This document shows positions 47,631 to 64,000 of a DNA stretch of 64,000 bases, in pieces. The stretch's first letter is position 1; every line of letters starts with the position of its first letter. The notes under the pieces are model-generated. The model worked only from the letters and a program-made list of their open reading frames with translations. It ran no database searches and was not told where the DNA came from. Source of the stretch: an uncultured Gammaproteobacteria bacterium (GTDB taxonomy: Bacteria > Pseudomonadota > Gammaproteobacteria > SZUA-229). Where the stretch lies: assembly GCA_963759005.1 (NCBI GenBank), contig CAVWXQ010000023.1, forward strand, positions 63-64,062. The letters are read 5' to 3'. Both the position numbers and the translations under genes were made by a program.

Positions 47631-47966
47631 AAATGCTTTTTAGTTTTTGACCTTTATCTGGCAATAAGTAATGGTCATATAAAGTCTGAGACATTGTATG
47701 CAAGCTACTGAAATACATAATTTATCTTATTTTATTTACTTAAAATGTAACTAACCATTCATCGGTTTGTACGGACATTTTGTCGAATTATTAATAGATT
47801 TTTCTAGAATTGGTATATCATTCGTTAACTTTAAGCAAAACGTGCTTATCGTACTCAAATGTCAGTCATGGTTCTCGTGGCTGAGCAAGAAACTCCAAAT
47901 CAAATTCAAAAAACATTATTACATCTAAGCGATGTATCAATTTATTTACATACGGGATGTATATAG

Positions 47967-56267: not shown

Positions 56268-57185
56268 ATGAAAGCATTAGTAACAGGTGGTGCTGGTTTT
56301 ATCGGTTCGCATATTGTTGATCGTTTATTGAAAGATGGCCATGAAGTGGTTGTTCTGGATGATTTTTCAACAGGCCACCGCAGCAACTTACCCGATAATA
56401 AAAAACTGACAATTATAGAAGGTGATATAAGCAACCAGGATACGGTTAAAGAATGCATGCAAGGTATTGACTGGGTATTTCATAAAGCGGCCGTCGCATC
56501 AGTGCCAAAGACTGTGAATGATCCCGTTGGCAGTAGCGCAGTAAACTATCAGGGCACATTGCACTTATTAGAAGCCGCAACAGACAACAACGTAAAACGT
56601 TTTGTATTCGCATCAAGCGCGGCATTGTATGGTGATGAACCAACACTACCAAAAATAGAAACCATGTGCCCGGTCACTTTATCGCCTTATGCAGTTGATA
56701 AATTAGCCTCAGAATTTGCCTGTGGCATGTACACAAAATTATATGGATTAGAAACCGTTTGTTTAAGGTATTTTAATGTTTATGGACCAAAACAGGATCC
56801 TTCCTCACCTTATTCCGGTGTTATTTCCATTTTTACAGATAAACTTAAAAATAAACAAACCCCCACCATATTTGGCGATGGTCAGCAAACAAGAGATTTC
56901 GTATTTGTAAGTGACGTTGTTGAAGCCAATATGAAAGCGGTAACAACGCAACAGGGCACCGGGCAATATTATAATATTGCAACAGGCAAAAAAATCACCT
57001 TAAACCAGTTATTAGAAACATTGTGTGAGATCTATAATGTAGATTTTAATGTGAATTATGGTGATATCAGAAAAGGTGACATTAAAGAGTCTTACGCCGT
57101 TATAGAAAAAGCAAATTCAATATTGAAGTGGACTCCATCGGTTGAATTAAGCCAGGGATTAAAAATCCTTTGCGAAAGCTTATAG
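56268..57185 (+). CDS. NAD-dependent epimerase (WbpP/GalE-like extended SDR)
   Basis: TGGAGFIGS, SPYAVDK, RYFNVYGP.QDP.SPYSGVI. Confidence 0.9.
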   Translation: MKALVTGGAGFIGSHIVDRLLKDGHEVVVLDDFSTGHRSNLPDNKKLTIIEGDISNQDTVKECMQGIDWVFHKAAVASVPKTVNDPVGSSAVNYQGTLHLLEAATDNNVKRFVFASSAALYGDEPTLPKIETMCPVTLSPYAVDKLASEFACGMYTKLYGLETVCLRYFNVYGPKQDPSSPYSGVISIFTDKLKNKQTPTIFGDGQQTRDFVFVSDVVEANMKAVTTQQGTGQYYNIATGKKITLNQLLETLCEIYNVDFNVNYGDIRKGDIKESYAVIEKANSILKWTPSVELSQGLKILCESL

Positions 57186-57217
57186 GGTTTTAACTAATAG
57201 AAAAACACAAACATTTA

Positions 57218-57522
57218 TTCACCACAGAGGTCGCTCTTGTGTATCCGTACACCTGCGACATTAGTGCATCCGTGCACGTCGCACAGAGGGCACAGAGTAA
57301 ACCTTTTAATTTTAAACAACCACCAGCATTAAGACTTGCTGCTTTTATTTTAAAAAATAACATATAAATCAAAGCGTTGTATTAATTACTTAATATATTA
57401 CTTTAGAAATATATCTTCGCTTTTAAAACTAAAAAAACTTTTCTCTGTGCTCTTCGTGCGACGTGCATGGATGCGCTAATGTCGCGCTCATATGGATGTG
57501 AAAGAGTGACCTCTGTGGTGAA
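57218..57522. repeat. Family A inverted-repeat element with a 51-bp insert in each arm
   Basis: ttcaccacagag|57230-57280|gcacagagggcacagag ... ctctgtgctcttcgtgc|57460-57510|ctctgtggtgaa. Confidence 0.9.
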
Positions 57523-57584
57523 TAAATATTTGTAGTTTTTAGATTTAAAAATAAAAAGAAAAATAACGTATTGGAACAATAATT

Positions 57585-58889
57585 ATGAAACAACAATTAA
57601 TAAATAAATTAGCAGACAAATCAGCAATTATCGGTATCGTGGGCCTGGGTTATGTCGGTATTCCTCTGGCATTACGTTATGCCGAAGCTGGTTATAAAGT
57701 TGTCGGTTTTGACATTGATCCTGAAAAAGTTGAAAAAATATCTTCAGGTAAAACTTATATTAAGCACATTCCCGACGAAGACATTCAATCTGCTGTAGAC
57801 AGGGGGTTCGAAGCCACCATTGATTTCACCCGTGCGACGGCTGCCGATGCATTAATCCTGTGTGTACCAACGCCACTCGATTTGCACCGCGAGCCAGATC
57901 TTAGCTACGTATTAGATACAATGGACAGTCTTCTTCCTTATTTGCGAGCCGGCCATGTGGTTTCACTAGAAAGTACAACCTACCCGGGCACAACGGATGA
58001 AGAATTAAAACCACGCATTGAAAGCACTGGTTTGAGCGTTGGAGACGATGTATTCCTGGTTTATTCACCAGAACGAGAAGATCCCGGCAATAAAAATTTC
58101 AATACACAAACCATTCCCAAAGTTTGTGGCGGCGATACCGAAGCCTGTCAGCAAGTTGGTGTTGCATTATATAGTCATGTTATCGATAAAGTTGTTTCAG
58201 TCAGTTCTACACGAGCCGCAGAAATGACTAAATTGCTGGAGAACATTCATCGCGCCGTTAACATTGGCCTGGTTAACGAATTAAAAATTGTTGCAGACAA
58301 AATGGACATTGATATTTACGAAGTGATCGATGCTGCCGCCACTAAACCATTTGGTTTTGTACCTTATTATCCCGGTCCGGGTCTGGGTGGACATTGTATC
58401 CCAATCGATCCATTTTATTTAACCTGGAAAGCACGTGAATATGGCATTAATACCCGATTCATTGAACTGGCTGGTGAAGTAAACAGCTCCATGCCCGAGT
58501 ATGTTTTAAACAAAATTGTTTCAGGTTTGAATGACCAGAAAAAAGCCATCAATGGTAGCCGCATTCTTATGTTGGGCATTGCATATAAAAAGAACATAGA
58601 TGATATGCGCGAATCACCTTCAGTAGAAATCATGCAGCTTATTCAAAACTGTGGCGCAGAAATAAACTATTCAGATCCTTACGTGCCAGTATTCCCGAAA
58701 ATGCGCCGTTATAGTTTTAATATGAACAGTGTGGAAGCAAGCAGTGAAAACATTAAAACCTATGATTGCATTGTAGTAGGTACCGATCATGTAGATTTTG
58801 ATTATGAAATGATTCGTGAAAATGCAAAATTAATTGTTGATACCCGTGGTATGTACCGTGGCAAATATAAAAATGTAGTACATGCATAA
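57585..58889 (+). CDS. wbpA: UDP-N-acetylglucosamine 6-dehydrogenase (WbpA-like)
   Basis: [36 protein letters not shown]. Confidence 0.85.
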
Positions 58890-58911
58890 AGTATATAATC
58901 ACAAACTTATT

Positions 58912-59185
58912 TTCACCACAGAGGCACAGAGCGCACAGAGAAAAACATTTTATCGTTTAGTTTAAAAATAAAAATAGTTCTCCTCTGTGCCCTTTGTGTC
59001 TCTGTGGTGAACAATAGTTTTTAGTTTGTGATTTGTAGTTTTAACAATAAAAGTTTACCTTTGTGTGCTCTGTGCAACGTGCATGGATGCACTAATGTCG
59101 CAGGTGATCTGAGCCTCTGTGGTGATAAAGTTTTTAGTTTTTAAATATAAAAAAGGTTCCTCGTGTTCTGTGCCTCTGTGGTGAA
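58912..59185. repeat. Family A element plus two extra right arms
   Basis: IR 58912-59011; further ctctgtggtga arms ending near 59125 and 59185. Confidence 0.9.
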
Positions 59186-59225
59186 CAATAGTGTGTAAAG
59201 TTTTTAGAATATATTAGGAGTAAGT

Positions 59226-60530
59226 ATGAATGTTGTAATGATTGGTTCAGGTTATGTAGGCCTTGTATCAGGCGCGTGTTTTGCCGAGTTCGGCGCAAAT
59301 GTAACGTGTATTGATAAGGATGAAAGCAAAATAAACGCGCTGCTAAATGGCAAAATACCTATATATGAACCGGGGCTGGATACCTTCGTTGCTAAAAATA
59401 TAGAAGCAGGCCGTCTGGGATTTTCGACAGAACTAAAAGAAAAGGTTGCAGAGGCCGAGTTAGTGTTTATCGCAGTAGGCACCCCGACAAGACACGGTGA
59501 TGGCCATGCTGATCTGCAATATGTCTATGCTGCTGCAGAAGAACTTGCAGGCTATTTAAAAGGTTATACAGTGATTGTTGATAAATCGACTGTCCCCGTT
59601 GGCACAGCTCGACAGGTACATCGAATTATCAGCACTGCAAATCCGGATGCAGATTTTGATGTGGCTTCTAATCCTGAGTTTCTAAGAGAAGGTTCAGCAC
59701 TTGATGATTTTATGCGTCCTGACAGGGTGGTTTTAGGTGTTGAGTCTGAACGTGCCGAAGCCTTATTGCGCGAACTGTACAGACCGCTTAACTTAATCGA
59801 AGCACCCATTCACGTAACCAATCTTGAAAGTGCAGAACTGATTAAATATGCAGCCAATGCCTTTCTCGCTACAAAAATCAGCTTTATCAATGAAATGTCT
59901 CAATTGTGTGAGAAAGTAGGTGCCGATGTACACTCTATCGCAAAAGGCATGGGGCTGGACGGACGTATCGGTAAAAAATTCTTACATGCAGGCCCTGGTT
60001 ATGGCGGTTCATGTTTCCCCAAAGACACACTTGCGCTCATACGCATAGCACAGGAACATGGCTCATCATGTCGTATTGTAGAATCAGTGGTCGAAGTAAA
60101 TGCCGCTCAGAAAGCCAGGATGGTTTCAAAAATAAGAGACGCATTAGGAGGCTCAGAAGCAGGTAAAACCATCGCAGTCCTGGGCCTTACCTTTAAGCCA
60201 GAAACAGATGACATGCGTGATTCGCCATCACTAGCCATACTGCCAGCACTGTCTGACAAAGGCGCAACAATACGCGCCCATGACCCGGAAGGCATGGAAG
60301 AAGCGAAAAAATTATTACCCGATAATATACAGTACTTTGATTCAATATATGAAATGTTTGAAAATGTAGATGCAGTTGTATTGATGACAGAATGGAACCA
60401 GTACCGTGCACTTGATCTTGAAAAAGTCAAAAGCTTGATGAAAGGCAATGTGTTTGTGGATCTACGCAACGTATACGAGAAAGACACCATGGAGCAGAAA
60501 GGTTTTAACTACCATTGTGTAGGGCGTTAA
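59226..60530 (+). CDS. ugd: UDP-glucose 6-dehydrogenase
   Basis: GSGYVG, AVGTP, SNPEFLREG, GYGGSCFPKD, FKPETDDMRDS. Confidence 0.93.
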   Translation: MNVVMIGSGYVGLVSGACFAEFGANVTCIDKDESKINALLNGKIPIYEPGLDTFVAKNIEAGRLGFSTELKEKVAEAELVFIAVGTPTRHGDGHADLQYVYAAAEELAGYLKGYTVIVDKSTVPVGTARQVHRIISTANPDADFDVASNPEFLREGSALDDFMRPDRVVLGVESERAEALLRELYRPLNLIEAPIHVTNLESAELIKYAANAFLATKISFINEMSQLCEKVGADVHSIAKGMGLDGRIGKKFLHAGPGYGGSCFPKDTLALIRIAQEHGSSCRIVESVVEVNAAQKARMVSKIRDALGGSEAGKTIAVLGLTFKPETDDMRDSPSLAILPALSDKGATIRAHDPEGMEEAKKLLPDNIQYFDSIYEMFENVDAVVLMTEWNQYRALDLEKVKSLMKGNVFVDLRNVYEKDTMEQKGFNYHCVGR

Positions 60531-60535
60531 ATATA

Positions 60536-60856
60536 TTCACCACAGAGGCACAGAGGTCACAGAGGAAAACGATTGTTGTTTTAAATAAGCACCAACTACA
60601 ACTGCCTGATGCACAAGTAGCAAGATCGTTTCTACTAGCATGTGTCAAGATGAACAGCAGTGTAGTGTTGACAACATTAATAGTTTCGTTCACATGTACT
60701 AGCTTGTGAACAGGAAACAGGGTAGATAGTTTATAGCTTTTAAGCAATTAAAAGGTTTTCCTCTGTGCACTCTGTGTCTCTGTGGTGAACAATAGTTTTT
60801 AGTTTATGATTTGTAGTTTTAACAATAAAAGTTTACCTCTGTGACACTGTGGTGAA
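60536..60856. repeat. Family A element enclosing a long imperfect hairpin, plus an extra right arm
   Basis: IR arms 60536-60570 and 60754-60789; degenerate arm 60837-60856. Confidence 0.9.
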
Positions 60857-60884
60857 TCAAATTGTTTAGAAAAAGGAGATGTAA

Positions 60885-61262
60885 ATGATAAAAGGAAATC
60901 AACTAACAAGCGAGATCATAGGTTCTGCAATTGAAGTGCATCGTAATCTTGGCCCCGGGTTACTGGAGTCAACCTATGAAGAATGTATGGCATTTGAATT
61001 ACAGGAAAGAAAATTAATAGTACAACGACAACATGAGATACCTGTTTTATACAAAGGAAATAAACTAGACCAAAATTACCGTATTGATCTTTTAGTGAAC
61101 AATCAAGTGATCATTGAACTAAAATCAATTAAAAAGATAGAACCAATCCATGATGCCCAGCTACTAACATACTTGAAACTGGCAAACATAAGATATGGAT
61201 TATTATTAAATTTTAACGTACCAGTAATGAAACAAGGCATTAAAAGATTATTAAACGGATAA
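60885..61262 (+). CDS. GxxExxY protein (PD-(D/E)XK nuclease superfamily)
   Basis: IGSAIEVHRNLGPGLLESTYE (GLLESTY), RIDLLV..IIELKS, AQLLTYLK, GLLLNF; RBS aaggag. Confidence 0.93.
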   Translation: MIKGNQLTSEIIGSAIEVHRNLGPGLLESTYEECMAFELQERKLIVQRQHEIPVLYKGNKLDQNYRIDLLVNNQVIIELKSIKKIEPIHDAQLLTYLKLANIRYGLLLNFNVPVMKQGIKRLLNG

Positions 61263-61336
61263 GCATATTAACCACAGGTTTATGCACATAAGACAAACAA
61301 GTGTTATATGTTATTTGTTTTTAACAATAAATAGCT

Positions 61337-61579
61337 TTTCTCTGTGTCCTCTGTGGTGAATAAGTTTTCTAAGCCTCTGTGTAATATGTTTTTAGTTTTA
61401 ATATAAAAGGTTTTCCTCTGTGCACTCTGTGCCTCTGTGGTGAATAAGTTTGTTAATATTTAAATATAAAAGGTTTTCCTCTGTGCACTCTGTGCCTCTG
61501 TGGTGAATAAAGTGTTTTATATGTTTTTAAATATTAAAAAGGTTTTCCTCTGTGCACTCTGTGCCTCTGTGGTGAATAA
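61337..61579 (+). repeat. Tandem array of family A right arms
   Basis: Three identical 43-bp units aaaaggttttcctctgtgcactctgtgcctctgtggtgaataa at 61405, 61468 and 61537, plus a shorter one at ~61337. Confidence 0.95.
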
Positions 61580-61600
61580 ATGTTTATGGTGAATAATTAA

Positions 61601-62611
61601 ATGAAAATATTAGTAACAGGTGTAGCCGGTTTCATCGGCATGAGTGTAGCCAAAGCGCTACTGGAAAGAGGCGACGAAGTCGTTGGCATAGATAATCTAA
61701 ATGATTATTACGACGTACAACTAAAACACGACCGTTTAAAATTAATCGAAGATTATGAGATGTTCACCTTCATAAAAATGGATATTTCAGATCGTGAAGC
61801 CATGAAAACACTGTTTGAAAAACAAAACTTCCAGCGCGTATTTAATTCAGCGGCACAAGCAGGTGTGCGTTATTCATTAGAAAACCCGCATGCTTATGTA
61901 GACAGCAACCTGGTCGGTTTCGTTAATATATTAGAAGGCTGTCGGCAGACAAAAGTCGAACACCTGGTCTATGCCAGCAGTTCGAGTGTCTACGGCGCAA
62001 ATACAAACATGCCATTTAGCGTGCACGACAATGTTGATCACCAGGTAAGCCTGTATGCCGCAACAAAAAAATCCAACGAGTTAATGGCGCATACCTACAG
62101 TCATTTATACAACATACCCACAACCGGTCTGCGCTTCTTTACAGTATATGGACCGTGGGGCAGACCGGATATGTCACCCTCATTGTTTACAGGCGCAATA
62201 TTGCGTGATGAGCCAATCAATGTCTTCAACGAAGGAAAAATGAAGCGTGACTTCACCTATATTGACGATATTGTAGAAGGTGTTGTACGCGTAATCGACA
62301 AAACAGCAGAGCCAAACCCGGATTATGATAATAACAACGCTGACCCGGCAACCTCCTATGCACCCTACAGAGTGTATAACATCGGCAATAATGACGTAGT
62401 ACAGCTTATGGATTTCATAGAAACCATAGAAAATGCAGTCGGCAAAAAAGCCGAAAAGAACATGATGGGAATGCAGGACGGAGACGTAGTTGCAACCTAT
62501 GCAAACATAGATGCATTAATCGATGCGGTTGGTTTTAAACCAGCCACACCATTAAAAGATGGTATCAAGAAATTTGTAGATTGGTACAAGGAGTACCATG
62601 GCTATAATTAA
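61601..62611 (+). CDS. UDP-glucuronate 4-epimerase family protein
   Basis: TGVAGFIG, AAQAGVRYS, SLYAATKK, RFFTVYGPWGRPDM. Confidence 0.9.
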   Translation: MKILVTGVAGFIGMSVAKALLERGDEVVGIDNLNDYYDVQLKHDRLKLIEDYEMFTFIKMDISDREAMKTLFEKQNFQRVFNSAAQAGVRYSLENPHAYVDSNLVGFVNILEGCRQTKVEHLVYASSSSVYGANTNMPFSVHDNVDHQVSLYAATKKSNELMAHTYSHLYNIPTTGLRFFTVYGPWGRPDMSPSLFTGAILRDEPINVFNEGKMKRDFTYIDDIVEGVVRVIDKTAEPNPDYDNNNADPATSYAPYRVYNIGNNDVVQLMDFIETIENAVGKKAEKNMMGMQDGDVVATYANIDALIDAVGFKPATPLKDGIKKFVDWYKEYHGYN

Positions 62612-62618
62612 TAGAATG

Positions 62619-62852
62619 TTCACTACAGGGATGCAGAGAGTACAGAGAAAATTTTTATTTTGTCATGCTGGCGTAGGCCAGTATCCATTTATCAGGTGAA
62701 TATGGATTATCAGGATTAATGCCAGGATAAGCGATGGATACCGGCTAGAAGCATACCTGCATGACGGTAATCCATTTGTTTGTCATTTTAATTCATGTCT
62801 TTCGCGTATTCTATGACCCCATAAAAGCTTTTCTCTACGTCTCTGTGGTGAA
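62619..62852. repeat. Degenerate family A element enclosing a GTCATG..CATGAC REP-like element
   Basis: ttcactacagggatgcagagag ... ctctacgtctctgtggtgaa. Inner tgtcatgctggcgtaggccagtatcca...tggataccggc...gcatgacgg. Confidence 0.8.
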
Positions 62853-62945
62853 TCGCCTCTAAAGTCTTGACTTTGACTCCCTTTAATCCAATAGACAGTT
62901 TATAATAAAAAAATAATTTTTCAGATATAAATACGGATGTAAACA

Positions 62946-64000
62946 ATGGCAAAAGTAGCATTAATAACAGGCATCACCGGGCAGGATGGTGCCTACCTGG
63001 CGGAATTTCTTCTAGACAAAGGGTATGTTGTACACGGCATTAAACGCCGGGCATCATCGTTTAATACCGACCGCGTAGATCACCTGTACCAGGATCCGCA
63101 TGAAAAAGAACAGAAGTTTATTCTTCATTACGGAGATTTAACCGATTCCATGAACCTGGTGCGTATTATCCAGCAAATACAGCCAGATGAAGTATACAAC
63201 CTGGCAGCGCAAAGCCATGTAGCGGTTTCTTTCGAGTGCCCTGAATATACTGCAGATACGGTTGGTATGGGTGCACTTAGAATACTGGATGCCATTCGAA
63301 TTTCAGGCCTGGAAAAGAAAACCCGTTATTACCAGGCATCAACTTCAGAATTGTACGGTGAAGTACAGGAGATCCCGCAAACAGAAAAAACACCGTTTTA
63401 TCCACGTTCACCCTATGCAGTAGCAAAACTGTACGCCTACTGGATTACAGTTAATTACAGAGAAGCTTATGGTATATATGCCTGTAATGGAATTCTGTTC
63501 AACCATGAATCACCCATACGTGGAGAAACATTCGTTACTCGAAAAATTACCCGCGCATTTGCAAGAATTAAACTGGATCTACAGGATAAGTTATTTCTGG
63601 GTAATTTAAGTGCTAAACGTGACTGGGGACATGCAAAAGATTATGTTGAAATGCAGTGGTTAATGTTGCAGCAGGATAATCCGGAAGATTTTGTCATCGC
63701 CACCGGCGTTCAATACTCAGTAAGAGACTTTGTAAATAAAGCAGCCAAAGCCGTGGATATAGAAATGGAATGGAAAGGCGAGGGGATAGATGAAAAAGGC
63801 TATGATAAAGCGACAGGAAAATGTCTGGTAGAAGTCGATCCAAGATACTTCAGACCAACAGAAGTAGAAACCCTGCTAGGTGATCCGACTAAAGCAAAAG
63901 AAAAACTGGGCTGGGTACCTAAAATTACATTGGATGAGATGGTCACCGAAATGGTAGAAAATGACCTGATGATTGCCAAACGTGATGCCCTGTGTGAAAA
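62946..64000 (+). CDS. gmd: GDP-mannose 4,6-dehydratase (runs off the window end)
   Basis: [53 protein letters not shown]. Confidence 0.95.

Follow-up and report, generated by a model that had tools for sequence, protein, structure and literature searches.

The repeat array at 61330-61596 of the window, as the whole 64,000-nt stretch of DNA analysed is called here, almost certainly consists of tandem copies of one arm of a dispersed hairpin-forming repeat, and probably represents an amplified set of terminal repeats from a small mobile cassette carrying a GxxExxY gene, whose product is a predicted nuclease of the PD-(D/E)XK fold. The array is made up of the following elements:

61330-61360, + strand: two-unit arm, 5' of the array units (repeat families D2, D4 and D6)
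61368-61381, + strand: arm fragment after the two-unit arm (repeat scan)
61405-61447, + strand: array unit 1, 43 nt, composed of three CTCTGTG units plus GTGAATAA (sequence, Tandem Repeats Finder)
61448-61467, no strand: linker 1, 20 nt, 90% A+T, alignable with linker 2 (alignment)
61468-61510, + strand: array unit 2, same letters as unit 1 (sequence comparison)
61511-61536, no strand: linker 2, 26 nt, 88% A+T (alignment)
61537-61579, + strand: array unit 3, same letters as unit 1 (sequence comparison)
61586-61596, + strand: partial arm end ATGGTGAATAA, 5 nt 5' of the epimerase start codon at 61601 (sequence)

The original prediction had described three letter-identical units of 43 nt starting at 61405, 61468 and 61537, in a single orientation and separated by AT-rich spacers of 20 and 26 nt, and all of this was borne out by the sequence, every array copy lying on the + strand; the 'shorter degenerate unit' which it also mentioned corresponds to the two-unit arm and the fragment following it. 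Tandem Repeats Finder delimits the repeat at 61387-61585, with a period of 63, 3.1 copies, 89% matches and a score of 299, and the 13-mer CCTCTGTGGTGAA, with up to one mismatch, has 17 matches in the window versus 0.01 expected, a count equalled by none of 100 shuffles. While the three array units do not differ at any of their 43 positions, comparison of the unit with the remaining 117 arms of the genome gives a median of 34/43 matching positions and a maximum of 41, so the divergence ascribed to the dispersed copies also holds; the best of them (41/43) is the arm at 60755-60789, at the array's own locus. Since linkers 1 and 2 align with each other (MAFFT), what is repeated is a period of 63-69 nt and not a repeat plus a unique spacer. 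In addition, the match between the unit and the dispersed element identifies the former as one arm plus one half of the central stem (TTAA.AATAAAAGG) and a tail rich in A+T.

CRISPR arrays consist of near-identical direct repeats of about 23-50 nt, with unique, unrelated spacers of about 26-72 nt and cas genes nearby. The likeness to them proposed at the outset extends to three identical direct repeats of CRISPR-like length (43 nt) in a single orientation, but goes no further, given that the linkers are short (20 and 26 nt), AT-rich (88-90% A+T) and homologous, that the repeat is dispersed 155 times over the genome, mostly as inverted pairs, instead of being confined to the array, and that no cas gene is present in 54.8-64 kb. 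A degenerate or miniature CRISPR array producing guide RNAs is therefore refuted on these features, and we regard it as practically impossible. The one Cas1 match in the genome is to a fragment of 79 aa located elsewhere, on contig C34.

The identity of the array as an intrinsic terminator was also considered and rejected, since no terminator-like site is predicted on the + strand from the GxxExxY gene to the epimerase, and the fold of two-unit array stretches is weak (z of -2.1 and -3.4). As no such site separates the gene from the epimerase, it is plausible, judging by predicted signals, that the array is co-transcribed with both. Promoter-like sites numbered 14 versus 17.8 in shuffles, none of them within the array, and an Rfam E-value search of 56-64 kb returned nothing on the array and only below-threshold miRNA-type hairpin matches on palindromic pairs. 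The GGTGA of the partial arm ATGGTGAATAA could base-pair with the 16S rRNA 3' end and serve as a ribosome-binding site; this partial arm before the epimerase ATG is not kept in G047, the relative in which the locus is compared below.

The array belongs to a longer series of arms, whose remaining elements and neighbouring genes are:

60536-60570, - strand: three-unit arm just 3' of the UDP-glucose dehydrogenase stop (inverted repeat I4)
60571-60754, no strand: core of 184 nt between the - arm and the first + arm (repeat scan, sequence)
60755-60789, + strand: three-unit arm, closest relative of the array unit (41/43; repeat scan)
60835-60857, + strand: two-unit arm directly 5' of the gene's ribosome-binding site (repeat families D3, D5 and I7)
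60885-61262, + strand: GxxExxY / PDDEXK_3 gene of predicted nuclease fold, 125 aa, with D68, E78 and K80 intact (PF13366, TIGR04256)
61601-62611, + strand: epimerase ORF (Pfam)

The genes of the locus form a sugar-nucleotide series, entirely on the + strand, in the order mannose-1-P guanylyltransferase, epimerase, two UDP-glucose/GDP-mannose dehydrogenases, GxxExxY, epimerase and GDP-mannose dehydratase. The - arm pairs with the first + arm as inverted repeat I4 (60536-60570 with 60755-60789; 35 nt, 91% complementary), and the core between them is overlapped by two ORFs, 60505-60747(-), which has no Pfam match, and 60515-60709(+). The immediate flanks of the gene are direct + arms, the - arm lying 340 nt upstream. 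The array had been placed directly downstream of GxxExxY, which is right for the four + arms that come after the gene but incomplete, since two + arms, at 60755-60789 and 60835-60857, also precede it; the gene thus lies inside the arm series and not upstream of it. Moreover, arms of the CTCTGTG family are found in 5/5 intergenic regions of 57185-62946, the run of five consecutive regions including the one from the epimerase to the GDP-mannose dehydratase, where a degenerate arm pair, 62634-62663(-) / 62823-62852(+), encloses about 160 nt of core. Another, composite pair at 57216-57524 has outer ends of the CTCTGTG family and, inside them, an inverted pair of a different module of about 60 nt (GTGCGACGTGCATGGATGC.CTAATGTCGC), which is seen also at 59070-59105 and at about 47640-47690; Rfam gave only below-threshold miRNA-hairpin matches on this composite pair.

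The protein is assigned by profile matches and by a predicted structure to the PD-(D/E)XK superfamily, as a PDDEXK_3 / TIGR04256 GxxExxY member. It matches PF13366 with an E-value of 5.4e-46 (156.2 bits, cut-off 22) and TIGR04256 with one of 8.7e-47 (158.3 bits, cut-off 35), and 38 sequences show no variation at D68, E78 and K80 or in the G25-E28-Y31 motif. The structure is modelled with confidence (pLDDT 95.7) and has a restriction-endonuclease-like fold, its top structural matches all being PD-(D/E)XK proteins; the best, 3ijm and the BpuSI nuclease domain, reach a middling Z of 8.2, and Cas4, Hjc and lambda exonuclease score lower. A sequence search of the PDB gave no match at E up to 1, and Foldseek nothing at E of 0.001 or better, leaving the protein with no close relative of solved structure.

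The dispersed family was described in the window's own genome, G000 (3.49 Mb, 57 contigs), an arm being defined as three 7-nt CTCTGTG units at a spacing of 8-9 nt with a GTGAA end. The 12-mer CTCTGTGGTGAA, with up to one mismatch, has 155 matches in the genome, 97 of them exact versus about 0.4 expected, and in 120 of the 155 another CTCTGTG unit lies just 5', making them arm-like. Ninety of these 120 arms form 45 convergent (-,+) pairs, 84-123 nt long in 42 cases, with the consensus TTCACCACAGAGGCACAGAGnnCACAGAG, a short GC-rich central hairpin and CTCTGTGnnCTCTGTGCCTCTGTGGTGAA; folding of such pairs is strong (-40.7 kcal/mol, z -13.1; -28.1, z -8.2). The only place in the genome where co-oriented arms follow one another at less than 200 nt is 59-61.7 kb of C23 (5/5 neighbour pairs). 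Further 13-mers of high copy number in the genome are CCATCCATGGACA (72), ATGAAATATCCGG (59) and GGTAGTAGGGCAA (46).

To the left of the pairs there is an A-run and to their right a T-run, and they lie between convergent ORFs in 18/45 cases versus a background of 384/2824, and between divergent ORFs in 1/45 versus 396/2824. Such a placement is what would be expected of bidirectional terminators, and a host function would fit it as well. In this context, the arms could be host-adopted RNA or transcription elements, the pairs terminating transcription in both directions or stabilizing or processing mRNA and single + arms serving as leader modules, with the gene merely landing among them. We hold this explanation to be unlikely. 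The left arm of a pair matches its own right arm at 32.9/45 positions and the right arms of other pairs at 33.5/45, and no within-pair compensating changes were found among the arm pairs; since the match to the own partner is no better, each arm behaves as a module of its own, and compensating changes do not maintain the stem. Nor would a host role account for an array having neither a hairpin nor a predicted terminator.

Comparison with the relatives of the genus, where 34 genomes were searched with 60300-61900, established the arms and the GxxExxY gene as an insertion whose sites are unoccupied in relatives. The spacer between dehydrogenase and epimerase measures 130 nt in G014, 94 in G022, 107 in G023 and 312 in G009 versus 1071 here, and neither the gene nor any arm of the CTCTGTG family is present in those four spacers; four further relatives, with a different upstream gene or a short contig, likewise have no arms. 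In G047 the order is dehydrogenase, - arm, eight + arms, GxxExxY, - arm, six + arms and epimerase, and the GxxExxY protein is 73% identical, its gene having two in-frame TAA. This disrupted gene, at 1676-2055 of locus L121 (G047:C106), may be a pseudogene or reflect a sequencing error.

In G000 the 29-mer CTCTGTGCACTCTGTGCCTCTGTGGTGAA is confined to the array, with 3 copies, and the G047 locus has 4; for a T-variant of it the numbers are one in G000, in the 60755-60789 arm, and two at the G047 locus. The coding DNA that flanks the locus is 82.0%, 84.1% and 80.8% identical between the two genomes. With the 29-mer 100% common to both species against 81-84% for coding DNA, the arm series is older than the species split, its copy number having changed since, and the arms are more constant than coding DNA. 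The suggestion of a recent amplification next to the nuclease gene consequently survives in part. Local amplification or homogenization beside the gene is indicated by copies that agree at 43/43 against a median of 34/43 elsewhere; nevertheless, since a locus-specific 29-mer is common to a second species, it is the identity of the copies, if anything, and not the array itself, that is recent.

This comparison also bears on the two simplest explanations of the array. According to the first, it would be a passive, microsatellite-like by-product of replication slippage or unequal recombination, functionless and independent of the nuclease, which is what the repetition of the full 63-69-nt period, linkers included, and the change in copy number from 2 and 4 here to 8 and 6 in G047 would lead one to expect. 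This seems rather improbable to us, given that co-oriented tandem arms are found beside the gene only, despite the 120 arms of the genome, that the arm core is 100% conserved versus 81-84% for coding DNA, and that tandem arm arrays recur beside GxxExxY genes of other phyla. The second explanation, an assembly stutter with a single real copy, draws on the read data, in which no contig from the assembled reads of four runs (X1, X3, X6 and X15) spans the whole array; none of the sequencing runs rose above 0.24 of the sampled words, and the read contigs were short, metagenomic and mostly on arms, from many organisms. A 96-nt contig of X1 nevertheless covers 61479-61577 across two units, though X1 is possibly the source sample. 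No stutter is obvious, since each junction has a distinct linker and the arrangement is repeated in a second species, and a simple one is ruled out by the arm series common to G000 and G047, an independent genome with 6 and 8 copies at the same locus; a single real copy is accordingly exceedingly improbable. The array as one continuous molecule is based on the assembly and on the parallel in G047. In an RNA library, a contig of 372 nt links arms with the beginning of a related gene.

The two genomes holding the gene are also the richest in arms, exact 20-mers of the CTCTGTG family (family 1) numbering 152 in G047 and 54 in G000, the two highest counts of the 34 genomes. Among the 12 genus genomes with at least 18 such 20-mers, only these two carry a family-1-type gene, disrupted in G047, and the other ten have none at 70% identity or more. 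The arm-rich genomes lacking the gene include G023 (99% complete, 39 matches), G021 and G046, and eight arm-rich genomes, G023 among them, have just the distant carA-carB type (34-42% identical) or none. Arms can therefore persist without a resident matching gene, which speaks against strict dependence on it. This persistence in 10/12 arm-rich relatives, together with the 29-mer being more conserved than adjoining coding DNA, favours adoption of the arms by the host; what such adoption leaves unexplained is the relation between genes and repeat families described next.

The only other PF13366 gene of the genome (C27:60713-61054) lies between carA and carB, in a second cassette (C27:60638-61102) whose inverted arms are built of a 10-nt unit, GTTCATTTGCG..GGAA, distinct from the CTCTGTG family. 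These arms too belong to a dispersed family (family 2), with 71 matches, mostly in convergent pairs. Within 5 kb of the first gene there are 14 family-1 arms (0.36 expected) and no family-2 arm, and within 5 kb of the second, 5 family-2 arms (0.21 expected) and no family-1 arm, so that each repeat family clusters about its own GxxExxY gene. In a reading of the arms as host elements there is no account of why each paralogue should be bracketed by, and clustered with, its own family. Furthermore, the similarity of the proteins follows the type of repeat rather than the host, identity being 64% between the window protein and a cyanobacterial one with CTCTGTG arms and 38% between the window protein and its own paralogue. 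Relatives have orthologous carA-carB cassettes with diverged units. A third iterated family, GTTCATCTGTGGA, has 96 matches with up to one mismatch (e.g. C4:92942-93020 and C14:116568-116644) and no GxxExxY gene of its type in the G000 assembly; carA-carB genes matching this family exist in relatives.

Outside the genus, the pattern CTCTGTGGTGAA-N40-70-CTCTGTGGTGAA, with 24 fixed bases and about 0.1 matches expected in 596 Gb, was found at no fewer than 119 loci, that is, at least 119, whose hosts include Acidobacteriota, Chloroflexota, Bacteroidota, Planctomycetota, Cyanobacteria, Spirochaetota, and delta- and gamma-proteobacteria. The arm motif is the sole sequence common to these tandem-arm loci, their flanks being different. 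Ten of the 80 loci whose 1.5-kb flanks are complete contain a PF13366 gene, L035 and L036 of these ten overlapping on one contig, and the other neighbours at the 80 loci are unrelated housekeeping genes; phmmer over the 119 listed loci gave 12 at E of 2e-15 or better and one weak match. Similar arrays beside homologues, which had been put forward as a check, are thus present both in G047 and at 10 loci of other phyla. At all ten gene loci and in the window, + arms lie 3' of the gene, often in tandem (up to 9), and the upstream arms are mostly on the - strand; since the loci were picked by their tandem arms, the tandem state is given by construction, and the proximity of the gene and the orientation of the arms are not. 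One locus of an Acidobacteriota MAG (L002, 1501-1870) packs the motif far more tightly, in an array of 18 arm ends repeated every 21 nt. The association of one arm sequence with one protein clade across phyla is a further point for which host adoption of the arms offers no account.

Another enzyme might also mobilize the arms, for example a Y1 transposase (IS200/RAYT-type) or an unseen IS transposase sharing the terminal repeats. There are 10 Y1_Tnp matches in the genome, and arms are found in genomes without a matching GxxExxY gene, both of which such an enzyme would suit; but all 10 Y1 genes are about 3 kb or more away from any family-1 arm, the closest approach being that of C6:25403 and C6:28735, and no transposase or integrase family appeared among the 235 arm-adjoining ORFs scanned with Pfam in the 80 full-flank loci of other phyla (57 of 292 candidate ORFs, those of the short loci L081-L119, having been left out of the scan). 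No parent element with a transposase was seen among these 235 ORFs, and the own-genome pairs surveyed were those with arms up to 400 nt apart. Mobilization by another enzyme is thus very unlikely in our judgement.

The surveys made from the side of the gene agree with those made from the arms. Within the genus, 20/20 GxxExxY genes have iterated-unit arms when inspected by eye, one being cut by a contig end, and the units vary by gene (CTCCGTG, CTCTGCG, CTTCGTG, TTTCGTG and 10-nt units). In a draw of genomes from the phylum the PF13366 family was present in 76/401, and of 29 other loci returned, 27 had enough flank for testing; inverted iterated arms were found in 24 of these 27, their score exceeding the highest from 30 shuffles by more than 4 points. 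It is common (L155-L177) for the upstream arm to fall within the 5' end of the ORF, with N-termini such as MNHRGTE and PQRTQ, which means that many members of the family start with a translated repeat; from the reading frames, N-terminal extensions in the annotation may either be artefactual or represent genuine leaders encoded by the arm. Unit type clusters on the protein tree, with 3 changes versus 10.4 in shuffles and 0/500 as low. In alignment column 12 (the x of AIxVH), E is found in 20/29 proteins whose unit has T at position 6, and R or K in 7/12 of those with C; with gene and flanks co-inherited and just 2-3 independent transitions, a sign test on this covariation of residue and base is without power and the E/R pattern stays a lead.

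Among known systems, the REP/REPIN-RAYT elements, dispersed inverted-repeat hairpins with a low-copy gene according to the accessible parts of Bertels & Rainey (PMC3116915 and PMC3337134), are the nearest in layout, and the resemblance is one of analogy, the protein here not being a Y1 transposase. As far as those sources go, the features in common are intergenic hairpin pairs, dispersed and formed by two short repeats in inverted orientation, a gene of low copy number with matching repeats on its flanks, with one family per paralogous gene, and the location of repeats at the 3' ends of genes. Unlike REPIN-RAYT, the enzyme is a 125-aa PF13366 protein of predicted PD-(D/E)XK fold and not a Y1 HUH transposase (PF01797), the arms are made of iterated 7-10-nt units and form co-oriented arrays, and many relatives hold arms without the gene. 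In addition, since the same arm and protein type occur across phyla, transfer looks horizontal and not strictly vertical, again unlike REPIN-RAYT.

The remaining parallels are more partial. MITEs and Correia-type elements are intergenic elements of about 100 nt with terminal inverted repeats and variable cores, co-transcribed with their neighbours. The pairs are similar to MITEs in being about 100 nt long and intergenic, with inverted ends and variable cores, but the gene-bearing form encodes a protein of nuclease fold and no parent IS with a DDE transposase was found. An IS-derived MITE was rejected as a candidate, since the inverted ends are present but no offset out of 30, with k of 3 or more, showed a target-site duplication in more than 4 of 42 pairs. 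BIMEs are tandem REP clusters of enterobacteria in which the REPs alternate in orientation; the array is like them in the local tandem amplification of a dispersed repeat, with a copy number that varies between strains or species, and unlike them in that its copies are all co-oriented, with no partner arm within the array. The cassette might also be likened to the ORF-bearing intervening sequences of 23S rRNA, as a small selfish ORF bracketed by inverted repeats within a host transcript, although the host context here consists of mRNA operons.

In the available parts of a 2012 survey of the superfamily (PMC3424549), the function of PF13366 is given as "Unknown", with "multiple transfers", and GxxExxY is mentioned in passing only in the accessible part of PMC8934634. 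No link of GxxExxY, PDDEXK_3, PF13366 or TIGR04256 to repeats was found in the literature searched, supplements and subscription journals lying outside the search, and matches to the arm strings were, judging by the listed titles, unrelated or primer sequences. What this locus contributes is the presence of arm arrays, their conservation between two species and the clustering of two genes with two families in one genome, as well as the persistence of arms in relatives without the gene.

Under the preferred reading, that of a mobile cassette, the arm would be the terminal repeat, the autonomous form having the nuclease gene as its core and the gene-less miniature form being a convergent arm pair about a short GC-rich hairpin. 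Beside the gene, the right half-element of 63-69 nt (half stem, arm and AT-rich tail) would have been multiplied head to tail, and the copies retained as, or made, identical. The nuclease would bind the iterated units, as DNA or RNA, and drive both the spread of arms and their local amplification, in a manner similar to that of RAYT on REPINs; by this analogy, recognition of the arm units by the nuclease is a serious possibility, yet one that we stop slightly short of calling probable. Within an operon the all-+ orientation may be tolerable, since co-oriented arms would be unable to form terminating hairpins. In a wider and more tentative form, to which we give clearly less credence, GxxExxY proteins could be the enzymes of domain-wide selfish hairpin elements, in which arms of iterated 7-10-nt units surround either a gene or a miniature core, with clade-specific units, gene-less copies, and arrays arising through preferential action near the gene; such a class would parallel REPIN-RAYT while relying on an enzyme of unrelated origin.

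These results have consequences for annotation, since arrays of such arms are not to be labelled CRISPRs, and many PF13366 members have N-terminal extensions that are translated repeat arms. PF13366 is a large, widely transferred family, and if its members recognise and spread arms, this orphan family would acquire a testable role. If this is true, many unexplained intergenic repeats of uncultured bacteria would be explained, and researchers would gain a new protein whose sequence recognition looks programmable.
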